In this document: positions 11,943 through 19,893 of the stretch, one piece after another
Position numbering within the stretch: position 1 is the first letter of the stretch
Layout of the letters: every line of letters begins with the position of its first letter
NCBI GenBank assembly: GCA_964449075.1
Contig: CAYVBJ010000013.1
Span: forward strand, 12,436 to 76,435
DNA: 64,000 nt
Reading direction: 5' to 3'
Source of the DNA: an uncultured Balneolaceae bacterium
GTDB lineage: Bacteria; Bacteroidota; Rhodothermia; Balneolales; Balneolaceae
The notes under the pieces: model-generated
Database searches by the model: none
The model's input: only the letters and a program-made list of their open reading frames with translations
Told to the model about the DNA's origin: nothing
Made by a program: the position numbers and the translations under genes

Positions 11943-12965
11943 TTAAAATTGTTGCAATCCGTAACCGAATTCACTCAGTATATCCCTGTTTCGTTCCAGG
12001 AAAATTCTTATCTGGTTAATACTCACAGCATGAGTAATCCCGTAGTTAATCCTGTTTTTACGCTCAACATAGATAGTATTTGTATATGGAATCTCTGGCC
12101 TGTAATCATTCATATTTATTTGTTCAGGAACTAAAACATACTCTATACTGGATGTAGATGACGAGAGCATCCCTACCCATTCCGGCAAAGAGGTTTCACT
12201 GTTAATAGCCAGGATCATTCCGCCGCTGAATCCGCGGTTGAACGAAGCATCTGTTGAAAATCCATTGCCACGCATTCGGTCTGTTTTACTTACGATTCCA
12301 CTGGTTATCATTTTTACTCCTTTGGGATATCCTATGGCATATACAAAGTCAGCCCACTCCAGTCGGTCCGAATCACCGGCTCTGATTGATCCTCTAACCA
12401 ATTCTTCGTCAATTTCAAACCGGGTGGATAAAACTGCTAAATCCAGGCTTCTGTTATTGATGATAACATCAGCCGGACCAAAATTATCACCGATAAATAC
12501 AGAATAGCTGCTGCGGGCTTTTACGGATACCGCTTCTACAACCTGGTTATTTGGAAAAGGTGAATTCTCAGAATAGTGCCAAACCGTATCCGGGTAATTT
12601 ACGATATGATCGGCAGTAAGCAGTGCTGCATTGCCATTGGATTCGGACAATACAACAGCTGTTCCGGCTCTTGATTCATTTTGTGTGATAATACCTAAGG
12701 AACGGCCTTCAAAGCCTGTATCAGAAAAATCTGCTTTTGTCAGTTGCTGATTAGGATCAAATTGATATGTGCGGTAAAAGACGGTTCCCTGAACTCTTGC
12801 AACCAAGTCCATATTTTCGCGGCTCCACTCCCCGATACGGGTCTGACTTGCGTCTTTCTTGTAATATCCTGAACGAATTGGTTGTTCAGCTGTCTTATTA
12901 TTGCTTGCGCAACTGCTTACCAGGAAAAGAAGTGCGATTGCGGAAATCAGGTATAATATTTTCAT
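11943..12965 (-). CDS. Lipoprotein with trypsin-like (S1) serine peptidase fold
   Basis: Signal peptide with lipobox LFLVSSC. Ordered His/Asp/Ser-type motifs: LLTADHIV, LDLAVL, GFSGGMIL. Confidence 0.55.
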   Translation of the reverse strand: MKILYLISAIALLFLVSSCASNNKTAEQPIRSGYYKKDASQTRIGEWSRENMDLVARVQGTVFYRTYQFDPNQQLTKADFSDTGFEGRSLGIITQNESRAGTAVVLSESNGNAALLTADHIVNYPDTVWHYSENSPFPNNQVVEAVSVKARSSYSVFIGDNFGPADVIINNRSLDLAVLSTRFEIDEELVRGSIRAGDSDRLEWADFVYAIGYPKGVKMITSGIVSKTDRMRGNGFSTDASFNRGFSGGMILAINSETSLPEWVGMLSSSTSSIEYVLVPEQINMNDYRPEIPYTNTIYVERKNRINYGITHAVSINQIRIFLERNRDILSEFGYGLQQF

Positions 12966-13766
12966 TATTCAATTTGTAATCTATGCCGACTTATTATCAA
13001 TAACGATACGAAAAAACAAATCATGTGCCAAAAAGCTATATGATTTAAGTAATGCGATCTGTTTTTAGATTCCAGAGTAAATTTTTTTGATATAGAGTCT
13101 TCTTTTGATTGTGGTTTGCTTACTACCTGCCCTTGTCAAAATTGTCCGGGAAGTAACCGCAATGGGCGCGGAGAAATTATCAATATAAAGGACCGGGCAG
13201 AAAAAACTGGCTGCTCGCGGCGATGGCCGGGAATTTAGCTAAAGAAATTCATCTATATGTGATCTCATTTCTGCGAAAATCAGTGGCTCACACGGCGTAA
13301 AACAGCGAGAAATAGACACGGGTCGATGTTTCTCGCAGAGTTTCGCGGAGCAGGTGGCTCCGATGGAGCCTGGTCAATGGGCACCCTTTTCATTTTCTAT
13401 GAACAGGAGGCTCCTTACGGAGCCGGTATACCGGGCAGTAATTCCATCATGATTCATTTTCAGTAAATCTCTACAGTTCAGAAAATTAACAGTTCTTCGA
13501 TTCAACAGTTCTACAGTTCAACAATTTTTAATCACCAACTAAAGTGCCAAAAATGAGATGATTAAGGGACCATTCAGCAAGGAAATTTCAGAGAATTCAG
13601 GCTTTTAAGTGTCAATAAGCGCAACGGAATCGGAGAACCGCGATGTTTGTCTTGGTAAATGTTTATGAATACTTTTTTTATTTAATATTATTTTGTACTC
13701 TGATTTAGTAAATGAGTATTTAATAAAATTGAATGAAAGAGATGTATATCGATTAAAAACAACATC

Positions 13767-14227
13767 ATGAAGAATACCAACCAACCAACCAACCTATTTC
13801 AAGTTATAAAGCCTTTGGAATTTCAGATTACCTTCTTGAGACATATAAAAATCAGTATTTTACGAAACCTGAGAAAAGTTGGAATGGTGATATTAAACGG
13901 GGAATTGAGCTTTTCAACAAAAAACTGTTTCAGCCGGAATGCAGTGTAAAAATAATTAAAGAGTTGAATAAAACTCCACAGAAGAATTATTCCGGTCGAT
14001 TTAAACGGCAAGTTGGTTTATCGCCAAGGGAGTATATAACTCACCACCGAATTGGTGCAGCTAAATTGTTGCTAATGGACAAACGCTTAAAAATATTATC
14101 GCTGGGCGATATTGGTTATGCAGTTGGCTATGAACGGTTGCACTCATTTTCGATGACATTTAAAAACAAAACGGCCAAATGGCCCGGAGAATGGAGAGAG
14201 GGGTATCTAATGGATGGAGAAAATTGA
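13767..14227 (+). pseudogene. AraC-family HTH-only regulator, out of frame with its only ATG (frameshifted or phase-variable)
   Basis: The frame beginning at 13757 is open to 14227 and encodes a complete double-HTH AraC DNA-binding domain (IKRGIELFNKKLFQPECSVKIIKELNKTPQKNYSGRFKRQVGLSPREYITHHRIGAAKLLL...IGYAVGYERLHSFSMTFKNKTAKWPGEWR). Its only upstream ATG (13767) is in another frame, and the two frames are joined across the CCAA tract. Confidence 0.6.
13776..13794 (+). repeat. Tetranucleotide simple-sequence repeat (ACCA/CCAA) of about 4.75 units
   Basis: The sequence reads accaaccaaccaaccaacc. It starts 9 nt after the ATG at 13767. Confidence 0.95.
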
Positions 14228-14315
14228 AGTAAATTTTGAAGTAGTTTTTGATGTAGTTTAAAAAAATTATGTTTTATTTGAGTTCAGTTTTAATAGGATT
14301 TTTTAAATCCTTTAA

Positions 14316-14570
14316 ATGAAAAATCAAATAAATCCTAATATTATGTTTAAAATAATAAGTAGCATATTTGTTACAATTGCATTAATACTTTTCTCACTGA
14401 ATATTAATCAAACCAATGATTCTGTTATAGAAGTCGGAGTAAGTGAGGCATTAGCCGGAGGTTGCACAGAATGCCATATGAGTGTAATTGAATGTCACCG
14501 AATTATACAAGGCAATGAAGTTCATATTTTTTACGGAGAAGCAGAGGATTGTAGTTCAACTTTCCAATAA
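14316..14570 (+). CDS. Small (84 aa) membrane-anchored or secreted Cys/His-rich peptide, function unknown
   Basis: N-terminal hydrophobic segment FKIISSIFVTIALILFSL, then SEALAGG followed by CTECHMSVIECH...DC. A strong intrinsic terminator follows directly. Confidence 0.5.
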   Translation: MKNQINPNIMFKIISSIFVTIALILFSLNINQTNDSVIEVGVSEALAGGCTECHMSVIECHRIIQGNEVHIFYGEAEDCSSTFQ

Positions 14571-14590
14571 TCAAAATCTTTAATTTTTAT

Positions 14591-14614
14591 AAACGGGCAT
14601 GTAATTGCCCGTTT
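14591..14614 (+). terminator. Rho-independent terminator after the small peptide gene
   Basis: Perfect 9-bp stem aaacgggca / tgcccgttt with a 6-nt loop, followed by the T-rich atttta. Confidence 0.7.
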
Positions 14615-14624
14615 ATTTTAAAAC

Positions 14625-15713
14625 ATGAATATTTTATACATACATTTAATTCTCATTGGATCAGCATTTTTAATTTCGTGTTCCTCTCCGTCAGAATCAT
14701 TTCACGAGCCAACGATATTGTTCCAGGATCTGCAAGAGAACAGAAGAAGCGCAGGTTCTTTTGAGAATATTCAATTAAGTACTCCACTACAGATCATGGT
14801 CTTTGATTCACTTTTATTAATTCATGATCAGTTTGAACATAATGGTGAATCATTTTTCTTTTCCTTTATAAATAGATTTTCAGGAAAAGAGGTTAAATTA
14901 TTTGGCAGAGAAGGCAGAGGGCCGGATGAGTTTCTATTTCCAGGTTACATAAGCAGAATACCGGGCAGAAATGATGTAATTGGAATGAATAATCGTAAGT
15001 TATTTTCCTTTGTGGAAGTATCCGTAAAAAAGGTTTTAGATGATTCTCTTCCTGCAACAGTCTCACAAATTGATGAACTGCATACAGACTATTCAATGGT
15101 TGGCAGGGTAGAAAATGACAGGATAATTGGGACCGGTTTTTTTGATGACGGAAGATATGCGGTCTCAAATCAGGAAAGTGAAATGATTGAGGTCGGGATT
15201 AGCTATCCATTCGAGGAAAAATTTGAAAATACTATAAGAAAACAACTGGGAATGCCCTACCAGTCCAATTTCAGATTGCATCCGGAAAAACCGATGCTTG
15301 TATCGGCAACGGTTTCTGCTGCTAATTTGGATGTAATTTCTTTTTATAATGATAAATTAAAAATTGAAAAACAGATTCATACCAACTATCCGTTGTTTGA
15401 GAATGAGTCAAATTCACAAATGTTATCGGCTAAGATTTTACCGGAAAACCTGGGAGGATATAGAGATTTAGATGTTTCAAAAGCATTTATTTATACATTG
15501 TATTCAGGGGTGAAACGCAAAGAGGGATTATCAAAATATTCATCGGGGAATAGGGTTTTAATTTTTGATTGGGAAGGAAATGCTTATAAACAATTAAATT
15601 TAGATAAAACCGCCATTAAACTGGCGGTTTCGCCCGATGATCAATACATGTATACGATTTCTTTAAACGAGGAGGATACATACGAAATCAATGTTTATGA
15701 ATTAAAATTATGA
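14625..15713 (+). CDS. Lipoprotein, 6-bladed beta-propeller (TolB-like / BF3164-type) family, function unknown
   Basis: 362 aa with lipobox AFLISCSS. Length and composition resemble Bacteroidota 6-bladed beta-propeller lipoproteins. The family assignment comes from recall, not a search. Confidence 0.55.
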   Translation: MNILYIHLILIGSAFLISCSSPSESFHEPTILFQDLQENRRSAGSFENIQLSTPLQIMVFDSLLLIHDQFEHNGESFFFSFINRFSGKEVKLFGREGRGPDEFLFPGYISRIPGRNDVIGMNNRKLFSFVEVSVKKVLDDSLPATVSQIDELHTDYSMVGRVENDRIIGTGFFDDGRYAVSNQESEMIEVGISYPFEEKFENTIRKQLGMPYQSNFRLHPEKPMLVSATVSAANLDVISFYNDKLKIEKQIHTNYPLFENESNSQMLSAKILPENLGGYRDLDVSKAFIYTLYSGVKRKEGLSKYSSGNRVLIFDWEGNAYKQLNLDKTAIKLAVSPDDQYMYTISLNEEDTYEINVYELKL

Positions 15714-15871
15714 ACATGTTTTTCGAATTCCTTTACATGAATAAGGTCTTCTATTCCTTGTCTTAATATCAAGTATATAACTCCCTGATTTTTTTACCAC
15801 AGAGTTGCGCGGTGTTTGCGTAGCACGGGATTGGCATCCAGTGCCCTGTTCCTGGCTAATACAAAAGGATT

Positions 15872-18307
15872 CTAAGGAAACACTCTACTTGTAAATGGAC
15901 TGCCTTTGATGCCTTCACCATTTAATTGAATGATAATTTCATCCGGACCGAAGAACAAGAATGTAGGTGTTGTCGGTGTGTAACTTGTGGTATAAACTCC
16001 ATTGCCGTCATCGATTATAGGTTCAACCTCGGCATCTTCGTTTACCCCCGAAACGCTTACCGAAAGGTTATCAGCTGCCCCTTCAACCCGGTTACCAAAT
16101 TGATCTTCCACAGTAATAGTAATTCTTGTCGGCTCACCGACACTTCCATTCGGTACCCTGGCTGTAGTTTGCCCGGGCTCACCGTCAGCACTTGTCACTT
16201 CAAAAGGGTTGGAACTCACATCAAGCCCTGCACCATTAAACAGTAAGGAGTATCTGTCGGCTTTGTTGATCACGAGATCTTCAAACAGAGCTTGGCCGTC
16301 ATTTCCGGTAGTAACTGTCTGGTTGCCGCTGTCAAATCCGGTGCCGCTCCCCAAACTGACAGTGACATCTACTCCTTCGACGGGATTTTCAAATGAGTCC
16401 GTAATCTCTGTGGTTGGCGGGCCGGTAATCGGCTGACCGGCTGTACTCTGCCCCGGATGAGTAATGACTATGATCGACTCCGGCGGGCCTGCTTCCACAG
16501 TAAACCGGCCGGAAGTTCCATTGATAGAGCCGTTGTCCGCAGTTATCGTTTGTCCGGCTCCGGCTTGCGTAACGGAGACGTCCTGTGTAGCCACTCCATT
16601 AGAGAAGCTGACACTTTCCGGGGTTATTATACCTGCCGTAGTACTCAGATTTGCCGTTTCACTGAAACCGGTGGCTTCATTTCCCCCGGCGTCAAGAGCA
16701 TTGATAGTAATACTAAAGGATTCGCCGGCTGTTTGCGGACTGGAAATTGTGTTAAAAGTAAACTCAGCTGCGGGGCCCGGTTCCACCGTACTGTTAAATG
16801 GACTTCCATTAACCTGGGTTCCATTTAATCGTATGTTAATTTGATCCAAACCGGTTTTTTGGGGTGTATAACTGGCTGAATAAACTCCGTTGCCATCATC
16901 TTTGACCGGTGATACATTATTGATATCATTGGCACCGGAAACACTTATGGACAAGCCATCTGCTGCCTCTTCAACCCCGTTTCCAAACGGATCTTCTACT
17001 GTAATTGTAATCTCCGAGGGCTCACCAGCCGTACCGTTTTCCGGTACATCGGCAACCGTTTGTGAGGGATCACCATTTGCACTATTTATAGTAAAACGAT
17101 CGGATGTTATTTGTCCGGCTCCGTCTACGGAAAAGACCAGCCTATAGCTGCCTGAACGGTTGATAACGAGATCTTCAAACTCAGCCACGCCGTTTGAATT
17201 TGTGGTGACAGTAAGTGTACCAGAGTCAAAATCGAGACCTCCCAGTTCGCTGACGGTTACCTCGATCTCGCCAAGCGGGGTATTCTCAAACCCGGTGACT
17301 ACAACAGTTGGAGCAGGGGATATAACCTCACCTGCTGTTGTGTTTGTGGGTTGAACGGTTACATTTATGGAGAGATTTGAAGTCAGAGATTCAAAAACAG
17401 CAGTAACAGATTTATCGCTGTCCATAACTAATATTGCAGGGTTATCTGATCCGGTAAGATCTTCCTGCCATTCTGAAAAAGCCCATCCTTCAGCCGGTTC
17501 TGCCGTTAACGTCACTTCCTCAGCTTCTTCATACATTTCTTTATCAGGGTTAAGATCAACGGTCCCCTCTCCCTGAATTCCGGCAGACAGTGAAAAGGTA
17601 ATTGAGCCTTCTTGTTGAAAAACAGCAACAATTGTTTTGTCTCTGTCAATCTCTACTATAGCAGGATTCTCATTTCCGGTCAGGTCTTCCTCCCAGCGGA
17701 CAAATTCCCAGCCTTCCGACGGTTCTGCAATAAGTCTTACGGTTCTAACCGGTTTTACTAAATTATTACCGGCTTGCAGGGTGCTATTATGTGTACTGAA
17801 TTTTTCACTTGGGCCGTCATCATTAGTAAATAATTCAGAAGTATTTATATTTTCTGCAGTTGTATCGGGTATGGTGCCTGTTTTGTGATCATGCGCTTTG
17901 CCTGGAACATCGTTATCTGTTGTTTTAGAATTTTCCTGAATCTCTTCTACTCTTACACTTCCGTTACCGTTGACTTCTATATTTAAATTAAATTCACTTT
18001 CCAGGAAGCGCGAAGTGATAAATTTATCACTATCCATTAGTATTGATTCCGGATTTCTGCTGCTCTCCAGGTCGCCTTCCCATCCGATAAAAATCCATCC
18101 TTCTGATGGCAGTGCTTCTACCTCGATTTGTGTATCTGCCGGAAATGTATCATCGGATGGAATAACAGTACCTCCCTCATCCGGTGTAACGTTTGTGGTA
18201 AGCGTAAAAAATTGAGGAACAGTCTCATCAAAAGGGGAGGTTGTATCTTCACAACCAACCGTATATACAAAAATGATCAAAGCAATTATAAATAGTGTTT
18301 TTCTCAT
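15872..18307 (-). CDS. Large modular cell-surface lipoprotein (InlB-B-like repeats plus Ig/filamin-like modules)
   Basis: 811 aa with lipobox YTVGCED. Three EGW-x-F-x2-W-x2-DL repeats (PSEGWIFIGWEGDLESSRNPE, PSEGWEFVRWEEDLTGNENPA, PAEGWAFSEWQEDLTGSDNPA). Two paralogous modules of about 170 aa each end in DDGNGVY-x-(A/T)SYTP. Confidence 0.75.
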   Translation of the reverse strand: MRKTLFIIALIIFVYTVGCEDTTSPFDETVPQFFTLTTNVTPDEGGTVIPSDDTFPADTQIEVEALPSEGWIFIGWEGDLESSRNPESILMDSDKFITSRFLESEFNLNIEVNGNGSVRVEEIQENSKTTDNDVPGKAHDHKTGTIPDTTAENINTSELFTNDDGPSEKFSTHNSTLQAGNNLVKPVRTVRLIAEPSEGWEFVRWEEDLTGNENPAIVEIDRDKTIVAVFQQEGSITFSLSAGIQGEGTVDLNPDKEMYEEAEEVTLTAEPAEGWAFSEWQEDLTGSDNPAILVMDSDKSVTAVFESLTSNLSINVTVQPTNTTAGEVISPAPTVVVTGFENTPLGEIEVTVSELGGLDFDSGTLTVTTNSNGVAEFEDLVINRSGSYRLVFSVDGAGQITSDRFTINSANGDPSQTVADVPENGTAGEPSEITITVEDPFGNGVEEAADGLSISVSGANDINNVSPVKDDGNGVYSASYTPQKTGLDQINIRLNGTQVNGSPFNSTVEPGPAAEFTFNTISSPQTAGESFSITINALDAGGNEATGFSETANLSTTAGIITPESVSFSNGVATQDVSVTQAGAGQTITADNGSINGTSGRFTVEAGPPESIIVITHPGQSTAGQPITGPPTTEITDSFENPVEGVDVTVSLGSGTGFDSGNQTVTTGNDGQALFEDLVINKADRYSLLFNGAGLDVSSNPFEVTSADGEPGQTTARVPNGSVGEPTRITITVEDQFGNRVEGAADNLSVSVSGVNEDAEVEPIIDDGNGVYTTSYTPTTPTFLFFGPDEIIIQLNGEGIKGSPFTSRVFP

Positions 18308-18529
18308 CTCAGATTTTATTTGTAATAAGCCTGTATTTCTGAAAATCCAGAACGACGCCTGATGAATAATAGAATAGGTGGGGCTTTCTTTTTAAATACC
18401 TAACCGTTATTAATTTATATACTTAAAAGCAGAGTGATATTTAAATTAAATTATTATAATGAATGCTTTTTGGAGCATTGATATTATAAATGCGCGGCAA
18501 TTATGGCAATTCTTTTATCAGAGAACCAT

Positions 18530-19216
18530 TCAAAGCGATAAGGATAATGCTTCAATTCCCGAAGCAAAAGCATCCGGTTCAGGCAATTCATGTGTATAAC
18601 GACCGTCACCTCTTGAAATGAATACTGTCTGAAACCCAGCCCAGGCGGCTCCCATGATATCCCAGTCGTGGGTGGCAATCATCATACAGTTGTCAGGTTT
18701 AGTCCTGAGTTTTTTAGCTGCTTTTTCGTAGACCACCCGATGAGGTTTATAAATCCCGAACTCTTCCACACTCAGATGTTTGTCAAAAAGGTCGTGCAGG
18801 CCTGAATTTTTCATCTGCTGCTCAAGGGCGGATGATGAAGAGTTGGTCAGGGTAATCAGTCGGTAACCGGCTTTTCGCAGCGTCTGCAGTCCGGGGATGA
18901 CATCGTCATGAGGTTTACAAGAAAGAATTGGCCGGATAGCTGTTTCAGCATCTGAAATAGAAAGTTCGATTTTATGATTTACGGCAACAGATACAAGAGC
19001 ATCGGCAGCCAGCTGACCAAAGGGCTTAAATTTTCCGCCCGCACTGTAAACGAGAGACAGGTGCAAAAGAGATTGAAACCAGAGGGGGACAAGCTCTCTT
19101 TTCCCATTCAGAGCTTCTGCTACCGATTCGCGAACCGGCGTGAGATCGAGCAGTGTTTCGTTAACATCGAAAAAGAGTGTTTTGGGCAGCATGGGAAGTG
19201 ATTTGGTTGTTTTCAT
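18530..19216 (-). CDS. HAD-superfamily hydrolase (haloacid dehalogenase type II-like)
   Basis: 228 aa with motif I FFDVNETLLDL, motif II LTNSS, and a C-terminal K...HDWD region typical of the HAD fold. Confidence 0.7.
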   Translation of the reverse strand: MKTTKSLPMLPKTLFFDVNETLLDLTPVRESVAEALNGKRELVPLWFQSLLHLSLVYSAGGKFKPFGQLAADALVSVAVNHKIELSISDAETAIRPILSCKPHDDVIPGLQTLRKAGYRLITLTNSSSSALEQQMKNSGLHDLFDKHLSVEEFGIYKPHRVVYEKAAKKLRTKPDNCMMIATHDWDIMGAAWAGFQTVFISRGDGRYTHELPEPDAFASGIEALSLSL

Positions 19217-19893
19217 GTGTAAGTGAAGTTTAAGGATTTATTTTTATGTGAGAAAGGAGCGGGATTTTTGAGGCTGTTGCCTGTAGAATGGGATCAGTCA
19301 GGAGACAGTACTGTCCCTCGGTGCGCCTTCCCGCCAACTGACGAACCGGCTTACGGGATGACAGGACCATTTTAGGATACTGTGCGGCGTATAAAGACCA
19401 TTATTAGAACAACGATAATCTCACGACGTGAGGAAGCAACAATAATCCTGGCGGCGTATGAAATATTTGTACAATTCTGATTTTTATACGCCGCCCACCA
19501 CTTACTGCGATCCCTGTCACCCCGAGTGCAACCCCGACAATTTCTTGCTCAATATCTTACATAAATTCAATCCTGTCGGGGTGGAATCGAGGGGTCTCAT
19601 GCTACAAGCAACTGCTGTGAACAAAAAACTCCCTGTCAACCAGCCAAAAACAAACTTTTCCCACCGGAACCATCGGATTAACTATCCAAATGTTGGCAAA
19701 TTTCACAACCGATGGTTTTAGGTTGGCAGGCTTGCTGTTCCCCCCGGCTAAAGCCGAGGGAAATCGATTTAATTTTGGAAAAATTTCAAACCCTAATGCC
19801 ATTAGCAGAGCTATTTTCCGGGCAACATCACTCCGTCACTCAGTCTCCCTTTATCCTCTCACTCAGTCACCCCGTCTCCCCTCCGTAACGGAC

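Follow-up and report, generated by a model that had tools for sequence, protein, structure and literature searches.

When a start codon and an intact regulator domain lie in different reading frames and a short tandem repeat joins them, is the gene dead, or is it a switch in its OFF position? This question is raised by a locus at 13757-14227 of a 64,000-nucleotide stretch of DNA (the window) from an uncultured Balneolaceae bacterium (contig CAYVBJ010000013.1), in which a tetranucleotide tract, (AACC)n, lies between an ATG and an AraC-type helix-turn-helix (HTH) frame. We put the probability at about 60% that the locus is a slow contingency switch, driven by a simple sequence repeat (SSR) and now in the OFF phase, and that it is the local copy of a Balneolaceae-wide module. 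A first-pass annotation, made from the letters of the window, had read the locus as a slipped-strand ON/OFF switch. That reading is strongly supported by comparison with other genomes (the module in 19 of 216 genomes, a homologue in another genus, G180, and a length polymorphism at a sister locus), but no variation was seen at the window locus itself.

Reading frames and tract

Translation showed that the frame of the ATG at 13767 runs for 60 amino acids (aa) to the stop codon TAA at 13947-13949, and that the HTH frame is open from 13757, directly after TAA 13754-13756, to TGA 14225-14227. In the window sequence, the HTH frame contains no ATG, GTG or TTG before the TTG at 13964, which lies inside the domain. 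Tandem Repeats Finder gave the tract at 13776-13794 a period of 4, 4.8 copies and 100% matches over 19 nt; it can be read as (ACCA)4.75 or, counted from 13777, as (CCAA)4.5, and begins 9 nt after the ATG. Because the unit is not a multiple of three and the tract separates the start codon from the functional body of the open reading frame (ORF), changes in unit number toggle the frame, and the tract itself encodes TNQP and is free of stops whichever frame is read. Addition of 4 nt joins ATG 13767 to the HTH frame to give a protein of 154 aa (MKNTNQPTNQP-ISSYKAF...), and removal of 8 nt gives one of 150 aa. The 60-codon ORF is a by-product of the frameshift. The first-pass annotation had placed both frames, the lone TTG, the ATG and the tract in just this way and had proposed that one unit gained or two lost would fuse the frames, and all of this was borne out.

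The tract exceeds chance expectation. In shuffled versions of the window, the expected count of CCAACCAACCAA, a 12-mer of the tract, is 0.02; in the 3.94-Mb genome the tract is the longest tetranucleotide tract and one of two with at least four units, and 20 order-3 Markov genomes yielded 0.0 tracts of 19 nt or more. It is also above the threshold of three units used for tetranucleotides in the survey of such SSRs in Haemophilus influenzae (PMC2651432).

On the proposed mechanism, translation would start in a conserved leader (…catcATGaagaa…), and an (AACC)n tract 4-50 nt further on would run straight into a small standalone HTH regulator, to which it would contribute a neutral N-terminal linker. 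Slippage during replication would add or remove 4-nt AACC units, and the regulator would be produced only if the ATG and the HTH frame coincide. At 4.75 units, translation from the ATG would stop at 13949 without any full-length regulator, and the gain of one unit or the loss of two would restore it. The regulator would presumably act on its own cassette, which encodes a Cys-rich secreted peptide and a six-bladed-propeller lipoprotein; both this action and its direction are inferred.

An intact standalone AraC-type regulator

The HTH frame is predicted to be a complete AraC-type DNA-binding domain. It scored 51.4 bits against the Pfam family HTH_18 (cut-off 33.6), matched positions 186-285 of the 292 in the NCBIfam AraC model, and was aligned to residues 7-107, the whole domain, of PDB chain 6swi as well as to the AraC DNA-binding domain 2k9s; the first-pass description of a complete AraC/XylS double HTH agrees with these matches. 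An exhaustive HMMER search placed it in a broad family of standalone AraC-type proteins of 130-165 aa, with family members of 130-175 aa overall. The classical AraC architecture with an N-terminal sensor/dimerisation domain was ruled out by the size of the product (150-154 aa) and of its relatives, and for the same reason the regulator is assigned, from its predicted length, to the MarA/SoxS-like standalone class without a sensor domain.

Intact relatives of 161-173 aa with 57-60% identity were found in Balneolaceae metagenome-assembled genomes (MAGs) and JGI metagenomes, and their homology to the window begins with the last codon of the tract (PISSYKA in the window, PVSRYKA and PVPIYRA in the relatives). 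Over 143 codons the HTH frame has no stop despite AT-rich DNA, and no further disabling mutation was found. In a 41-member family alignment the invariant residues F69 and G111 and the near-invariant F45, G74, P77, R85, F118, F122 and P130 are all kept in the window copy. A word-indexed search for the window protein returned 3 hits only, and a scan of metagenome loci for closer relatives found only loci of at most 58% identity.

The (AACC)n module in Balneolaceae

An (AACC)4 pattern search was made in 61 relatives and then in 216 Balneolaceae genomes, with HTH ORFs located by hidden Markov models (HMMs) for the GerE and AraC types. Tracts were present in six of the 61 relatives, at one locus each, and in 19 of the 216 genomes, giving in total 24 perfect tracts of 4.75-11.75 units. 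The longest, with 11.75 units, is in G218, and G175 has tracts of 8-10 units at four loci. At least 20 of the 24 lie directly 5′ of a small HTH ORF and just after one or two ATGs in different frames. The ORFs behind the tracts comprise 16 of the GerE/LuxR type (about 70 aa) and five of the AraC type (G000, G003, G011, G180 and, more weakly, G189b); the tract of G022 stands between ATGAAGAAA and a lipoprotein signal peptide. In a separate scan of the 5′ regions of relatives, (AACC)6 was found near an AraC-type relative in a same-genus genome. The HTH ORFs behind OFF-phase tracts are open and conserved in nearly all copies (about 17 genomes).

The leader of the module is conserved as '(a)aaaccATCATGaa…', and the form 'catcATGaa' is common to the window and to G180, G174b, G189a, G209, G212, G215 and G218. 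A second ATG in another frame often follows 4-16 nt downstream, as in G001, G180, G174, G189, G215 and G218; the window copy has a single ATG. The closest tract-bearing homologue belongs to another genus (G180). It reads 'acatcatcATGaagaagaATGgagat(AACC)7.25' at the identical codon position, its AraC-type ORF of 143 codons is 55% identical to that of the window without gaps from the first codon after the tract, and it is followed by the same peptide and TolB-like propeller genes. Because G180 shares leader, tract position and homologue, the comparison settles ATG 13767 as the start codon of the module itself; as judged from the same alignment, the position of the tract is conserved across genera. 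The cassettes behind the LuxR-type copies encode a Cys-rich peptide plus a propeller of the DUF5128, TolB_like or DUF4221 family, or else a VKOR-domain protein.

Outside this family, a scan of species representatives for (AACC)6 gave at least 120 stretches, and no record titled Balneolaceae was among the matches listed. Tracts of (AACC)6 or longer are common in other phyla, and the 80 loci inspected showed other contexts, such as prepilins and restriction-modification enzymes. Two such tracts, (AACC)11 in a Limisphaerales record (OZ242022.1) and (AACC)34 in a Bdellovibrionales record (OZ241911.1), follow an ATG and precede prepilin-type signals (GFTLIELL… and GFSLIEIL…), which makes these loci candidate phase-variable pseudopilins.

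Repeats of other kinds were also noted. In other genera, G9, C9 and (TCTAT)6 occur 30-100 nt upstream of short AraC-type homologues (G044, G025 and G033). Each of the two homopolymer genomes has only about five sites with a run of G9 or longer, and G025 has a second G9 run 1.9 kb away (C1:60752). A tandem pseudogene copy in G033 retains only (TATTC)3. In G212 (C41, about 372780-372803), (AACC)6.75 adjoins (TAAC)6, which closes every one of the three frames with stops, and a LuxR-type ORF comes next; no read-through from the upstream ATG is possible there.

Tract length varies at a LuxR-type sister locus

When the LuxR-type ORFs were used for a profile search, natural proteins beginning M…(TNQP)n were recovered, and one 90% cluster contains a pair of proteins distinguished by a single QPTN block and a single substitution. 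At the corresponding locus, a JGI brine contig carries (AACC)7 and is ON (87 aa). An ENA contig with (AACC)4 is also ON (83 aa) and has 1 mismatch to the brine contig in 300 nt of flank (99.7% identity), and genome G221 with (AACC)6 is OFF, with 9 mismatches in the same flank (97%). Natural ON alleles use either start, ATG1 in protein P0198 and ATG2 in P0179, the G189a protein; the protein of the G001 ON allele is known from G001 alone. As they stand in these records, the length differences at the sister locus are the signature of slipped-strand phase variation, and the four-unit allele shows that a tract this short can form part of a live polymorphism.

Uniform tract length and the pseudogene alternative

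A number of observations weigh against a switch at the window locus. Besides the window, ten public contigs span the tract (JGI 3300007535, 3300007626, 3300007712, 3300026157 and 3300026167; ENA ERZ27257090; NCBI GCA_035312545.1; Logan SRR14626311, SRR5468416 and SRR5209943), and all of them carry the identical 19-nt tract of 4.75 units. These contigs, which were retrieved via the propeller lipoprotein, the protease and the 87-aa product annotated at the locus, are consensus assemblies from samples that may not be independent. They are at least 99.9% identical to the window, without gaps across up to 7.9 kb; the flank formed by the protease gene has 0-4 single-nucleotide polymorphisms (SNPs) per contig and at least three haplotypes, and the AT-rich islet around the regulator has none. 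No repeat-number difference between closely related strains was therefore seen at the window locus among the ten consensus contigs with their three or more flank haplotypes, and the consensus of every sampled population is OFF. Nor was an ON allele of the window protein found among the gene calls of a 15-billion-protein collection. The first-pass annotation had suggested comparing repeat number among related strains and looking for other 5′-proximal CCAA tracts in the genome. The number does vary across the family and is constant in the ten contigs of this species; the survey of the window's own genome found no other 5′-proximal tetranucleotide tract. With 4.75 units the window tract is the shortest of the family and stands at the low end, where slippage is slow. 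Some relatives are decaying: the G158 homologue is interrupted by an internal stop, a stop is also present in one copy of G033, and the short AraC-type homologue of G011 (G011:C2:9194-9644), with (AACC)5.75 in the OFF phase, has TGA in place of a conserved Trp. Finally, the HTH frame reads KQHHEEY 5′ of the tract. This is similar to the MNH(D)E with which the closest homologues without a tract begin, and it hints at an older start that once lay in the HTH frame.

These points could be explained by a fixed frameshift pseudogene, an alternative that the first-pass annotation had raised as well. An in-frame ancestor would have changed its number of units or lost its older start, the gene would be dead, and the intactness of the ORF would simply reflect how recently this happened; slippage at the tract would by now be too rare to matter. 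The single tract length in all 11 assemblies, the lack of an ON allele in the protein collection, the shortness of the tract and the decaying copies in G011, G158 and G033 all favour such a history, and KQHHEEY makes loss of a start codon conceivable. Loss of the start codon as the primary lesion was nevertheless set aside, the context of the ATG being conserved with the tract-bearing relatives, and it is kept here as part of the pseudogene explanation. The same conserved context speaks against a dead gene in general, as do the lack of a second lesion in 143 AT-rich codons and the retention of all conserved residues. Moreover, the family keeps open HTH ORFs behind OFF tracts in about 17 genomes, which dead genes would not do, and the four-unit allele of the sister locus belongs to a live polymorphism. 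The first-pass annotation had named uniform repeat number together with further disabling mutations in orthologues as the pattern that would tell against a switch; the repeat number proved uniform across assemblies, and further disabling mutations were not found in the window copy. On balance we consider a pseudogene unlikely, while granting it appreciable weight.

An error of sequencing or assembly was likewise considered at the outset; single assemblies can miscount repeats, but here it can be dismissed with near certainty. Several pipelines produced the contigs (JGI assemblies, ENA contigs with k141-type names, an NCBI MAG and Logan contigs), yet the ten records show the identical 19-nt tract without gaps up to 7.9 kb, and the tract is far shorter than a read.

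As to the contingency switch itself, we infer that the window copy still switches, and it probably does so slowly, as a stable and nearly locked OFF allele. Slippage rate increases with repeat number (De Bolle 2000, as cited in PMC2651432 and PMC11868660). Since the window tract is the shortest of its family, slow switching would be expected, and it would fit the uniform OFF state of all assemblies. One criterion for contingency loci is that they switch reversibly, in the absence of selection, at a rate of at least about 1e-5 per generation (PMC11868660).

Possible expression without a change of DNA and the excess of OFF frames

The regulator might be made from the OFF allele without any change of DNA, either by a shift of frame within the repeat or from a non-canonical start such as ATT 13796, in which case OFF would be the normal low-expression state. 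A tRNA on AAC, ACC, CAA or CCA can find a matching codon 4 nt away and thereby change the frame by one, and ISSY (13796) aligns with the first residues of typical family members of about 135 aa. For another repeat, a 2026 preprint (10.64898/2026.04.01.715767) describes OFF-phase constructs with leaky expression that depended on the frame. The excess of OFF loci set out below points the same way, although it is overstated by the counting of related genomes. ATT starts are rare, however, and a programmed −1 ribosomal frameshift site was rejected, since 13767-13800 contains no slippery heptamer of the form X XXY YYZ and the predicted RNA fold of 13740-13900 is no better than that of shuffles (z = 0.44). 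Perfect tracts that vary between and within lineages are the product expected of DNA slippage, natural ON alleles are fused to either ATG, and the (TAAC)n block of G212, with its stops in all frames, could not be passed by recoding. We judge this explanation improbable.

A further possibility is that the 87-aa product from TTG 13964 is a real functional protein, made perhaps by reinitiation after the 60-codon ORF. It is predicted by gene callers in several assemblies, and the stop of the upstream ORF at 13949 is only 15 nt from the TTG. Yet this product starts within the first HTH, with helix 1 and most of HTH1 of the AraC fold missing, homology reaches 56 codons further upstream to the tract, and no family member is so short except fragments; the possibility is accordingly very slight. 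Taken together, expression by other means than slippage has a low probability.

Among intact two-ATG loci, 3 of 13 are ON where two-thirds would be expected (binomial p about 0.002), but the genomes counted are related, so that both the excess and the p value are overstated. None of the five intact single-ATG loci is ON, and 15 of the 18 intact loci sit in the frame reached by neither ATG (the tally covers L041 in G003, L042 in G001, L044 in G011, L045 in G022, L058-L071 and L080-L084). At the two-ATG loci that are OFF, the gain or the loss of a single unit would bring one or the other ATG into frame. A default OFF state under selection, with a costly ON state and populations resting in the single OFF frame, could account for the bias equally well, and it draws on this same symmetry of the one-unit slip. 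More speculatively, the OFF frame could be the working state: a few ribosomes or transcripts would re-pair 4 nt away and give a trickle of regulator, the level of which would be set by DNA slippage. This would explain why 15 of 18 intact loci occupy that frame and, if true, tetranucleotide repeats would serve as a recoding signal as well as a mutational switch; we hold it to be a long shot.

The three-gene cassette and its surroundings

The coordinates of the locus are collected in Table 1. The regulator heads a cassette within an AT-rich islet, and the islet, the small Cys-rich peptide and the lipoprotein noted in the first-pass annotation were all recovered (GC content of 28-37% against 42% for the genome).

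Table 1. Features of the regulator locus and its cassette (window coordinates)
Feature	Position	Strand	Basis or remark
AT-rich islet holding the three-gene cassette, GC 28-37%	~13400..15800		GC profile; genome GC 42%
Leader ATG, context 'acatcATGaagaa'	13767..13769	+	Sole canonical start 5′ of the HTH domain; frame +1 relative to the HTH frame
Perfect tetranucleotide tract (ACCA)4.75 = (AACC)/(CCAA)	13776..13794	+	Present length gives the putative OFF phase
OFF-frame ORF from the ATG, MKNTNQPTNLFQV..., 60 codons	13767..13949	+	No Pfam match
AraC-type double-HTH frame, 143 codons, intact, no in-frame canonical start	13796..14227	+	HMM matches and homologues
87-aa ORF from TTG as annotated by gene callers	13964..14227	+	Begins within the first HTH; truncated domain
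Three 12-nt direct repeats (TTGAAGTAGTTT) between regulator stop and peptide gene	14224..14259	+	Candidate operator
84-aa peptide with hydrophobic N-terminal segment and Cys/His-rich tail (…VSEALAGGCTECH…), second cassette gene	14316..14570	+	ORF; no Pfam match
362-aa lipoprotein, TolB-like six-bladed beta-propeller family PF15869, third cassette gene	14625..15713	+	Pfam E = 1e-32

The arrangement is kept in 10 of 12 relatives, in which the regulator is followed on the same strand by a secreted Cys-rich peptide (73-84 aa) and then a lipoprotein. Where complete, the lipoprotein of the relatives has about 330-375 aa, and most carry a GxGPGE motif; analogous Cys-rich secreted peptides after the regulator span 66-110 aa, and the propeller lipoproteins at the matching position belong to DUF5128, TolB_like or DUF4221. 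From this conserved synteny the AraC-type gene is presumably the dedicated regulator of a conserved three-gene cassette. The NVEALA family, suggested for the 84-aa peptide by its 'VSEALAGG', was discarded, as there was no Pfam match even at E = 1. About 250 nt upstream of the regulator, four ACAGTTC words form part of a 16-nt tandem repeat (13471-13524) and are candidate binding sites. A sigma-70 promoter scan gave fewer matches than shuffles in the scanned region, and the stretch from 12487 to 19769 lacks the Bacteroidota-type −7 motif TAnnTTTG, so that no promoter was assigned; an Rfam scan of 12800-14700 returned no match.

The GntR-protease pair of genes is conserved in the same-genus genomes G003 and G001. 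In G003 the islet is absent from the GntR-protease site, and a weak AraC match at such a site was spurious, as it overlaps the protease gene. In one metagenome contig (L018, 2040-2643) the regulator cassette is flanked by a pair of small genes (about 66-69 and 148-150 aa) that flanks the protease gene in G003 (L037, 650-1250), and the sharing of this pair suggests a recombination-prone neighbourhood. At window positions 13637-13647 and 14286-14339, the borders of the regulator segment, a number of independent metagenome contigs come to an end (L034, L035, L036, L029 and L030). Three of them stop at 13637-13647, and the most diverged haplotypes, with 10-12 SNPs, account for two of these three. 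Strains that co-occur with this one may lack the islet or have a different one.

Elsewhere in the same genome, about 20 heptanucleotide arrays (units such as TACTGCA, ATCAGCT, TATCGGC, ACTGCCG and GTTTTGC; for example G000:C10:76567-76621, C16:8705-8756, C32:27698-27754, C72:6208-6269 and C40:28318-28379) and two octanucleotide arrays were seen. Most have about five to nine copies and they appear intergenic; because many adjoin contig ends or N gaps, they are probably longer than assembled.

Comparison with known repeat-driven switches

The closest described system is hgp of H. influenzae, whose tracts are much longer than 4.75 units. There, (CCAA)n governs translational phase variation of hgpA, hgpB and hgpC (PMC9341677, in a passage that cites Ren et al. 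1999), and the ON fraction among isolates is 22-31%, near or below one third (PMC9341677). The unit (CCAA = AACC = ACCA), the 5′ position in the ORF and the slipped-strand logic of the frames are all as in the Balneolaceae module. The hgp targets, however, are outer-membrane haemoglobin-haptoglobin receptors of a host-restricted pathogen, whereas the window target is a cytoplasmic mini-regulator in free-living Balneolaceae, and the window locus is known from consensus sequences of one tract length. Sample names such as 'BRINE' may point to a saline habitat.

Another system of H. influenzae, lic1/licA, uses (CAAT)n with alternative in-frame ATGs. A tetranucleotide tract just after more than one ATG in different frames is also what the two-ATG relatives in Balneolaceae have, and with it the start that is used depends on the number of repeats. 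The window copy differs in its single ATG and in that its target is a regulator rather than a lipopolysaccharide-modifying enzyme, and the Balneolaceae family differs in its excess of the frame reached by neither ATG.

Regulators are switched by homopolymers in Campylobacter flgR/flgS and Bordetella bvgS. Phase-variable regulators are further represented by the phasevarions of DNA methyltransferases (PMC5909438, PMC11868660). In all of these the repeat switches a regulator, as it would in the module described here, so that one slippage event alters the expression of other genes. The Balneolaceae targets are unlike global methyltransferases and two-component systems in being standalone HTH proteins of 70-150 aa, each heading a local cassette, and a single tetranucleotide module is shared by two unrelated HTH families.

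With MarA and SoxS the predicted regulator shares a double-HTH AraC domain that stands alone, without a ligand-binding or dimerisation domain. The relation is one at the level of the family (Pfam HTH_18), since identity to solved AraC domains is no higher than about 30%. In addition, the Balneolales group to which the window protein belongs has a conserved stretch of its own at the N-terminus, about 45 aa long (…Y..(L)T.P...W…). MarA and SoxS are under transcriptional control, whereas the window gene would be controlled by a coding repeat.

Repeat-driven phase variation is usually portrayed as a trait of small-genome host-adapted pathogens that affects surface molecules (PMC11475388), and a literature search found no paper linking Balneolaceae with phase variation. 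Against this background the host group would be new, as would the target class, minimal HTH regulators that head Cys-rich-peptide cassettes, and so would a leader-plus-repeat module common to two unrelated HTH families and a lipoprotein. The module is portable, and the regulators behind it head cassettes whose products are Cys-rich secreted peptides, six-bladed-propeller lipoproteins or disulfide enzymes of the VKOR type. It would also explain why small regulator genes that look 'truncated' or start-less appear as a class in the annotation of Balneolaceae genomes. If the switch is real, single slippage events would give rise to subpopulations with whole peptide cassettes turned on, a form of bet-hedging or division of labour in environmental bacteria.

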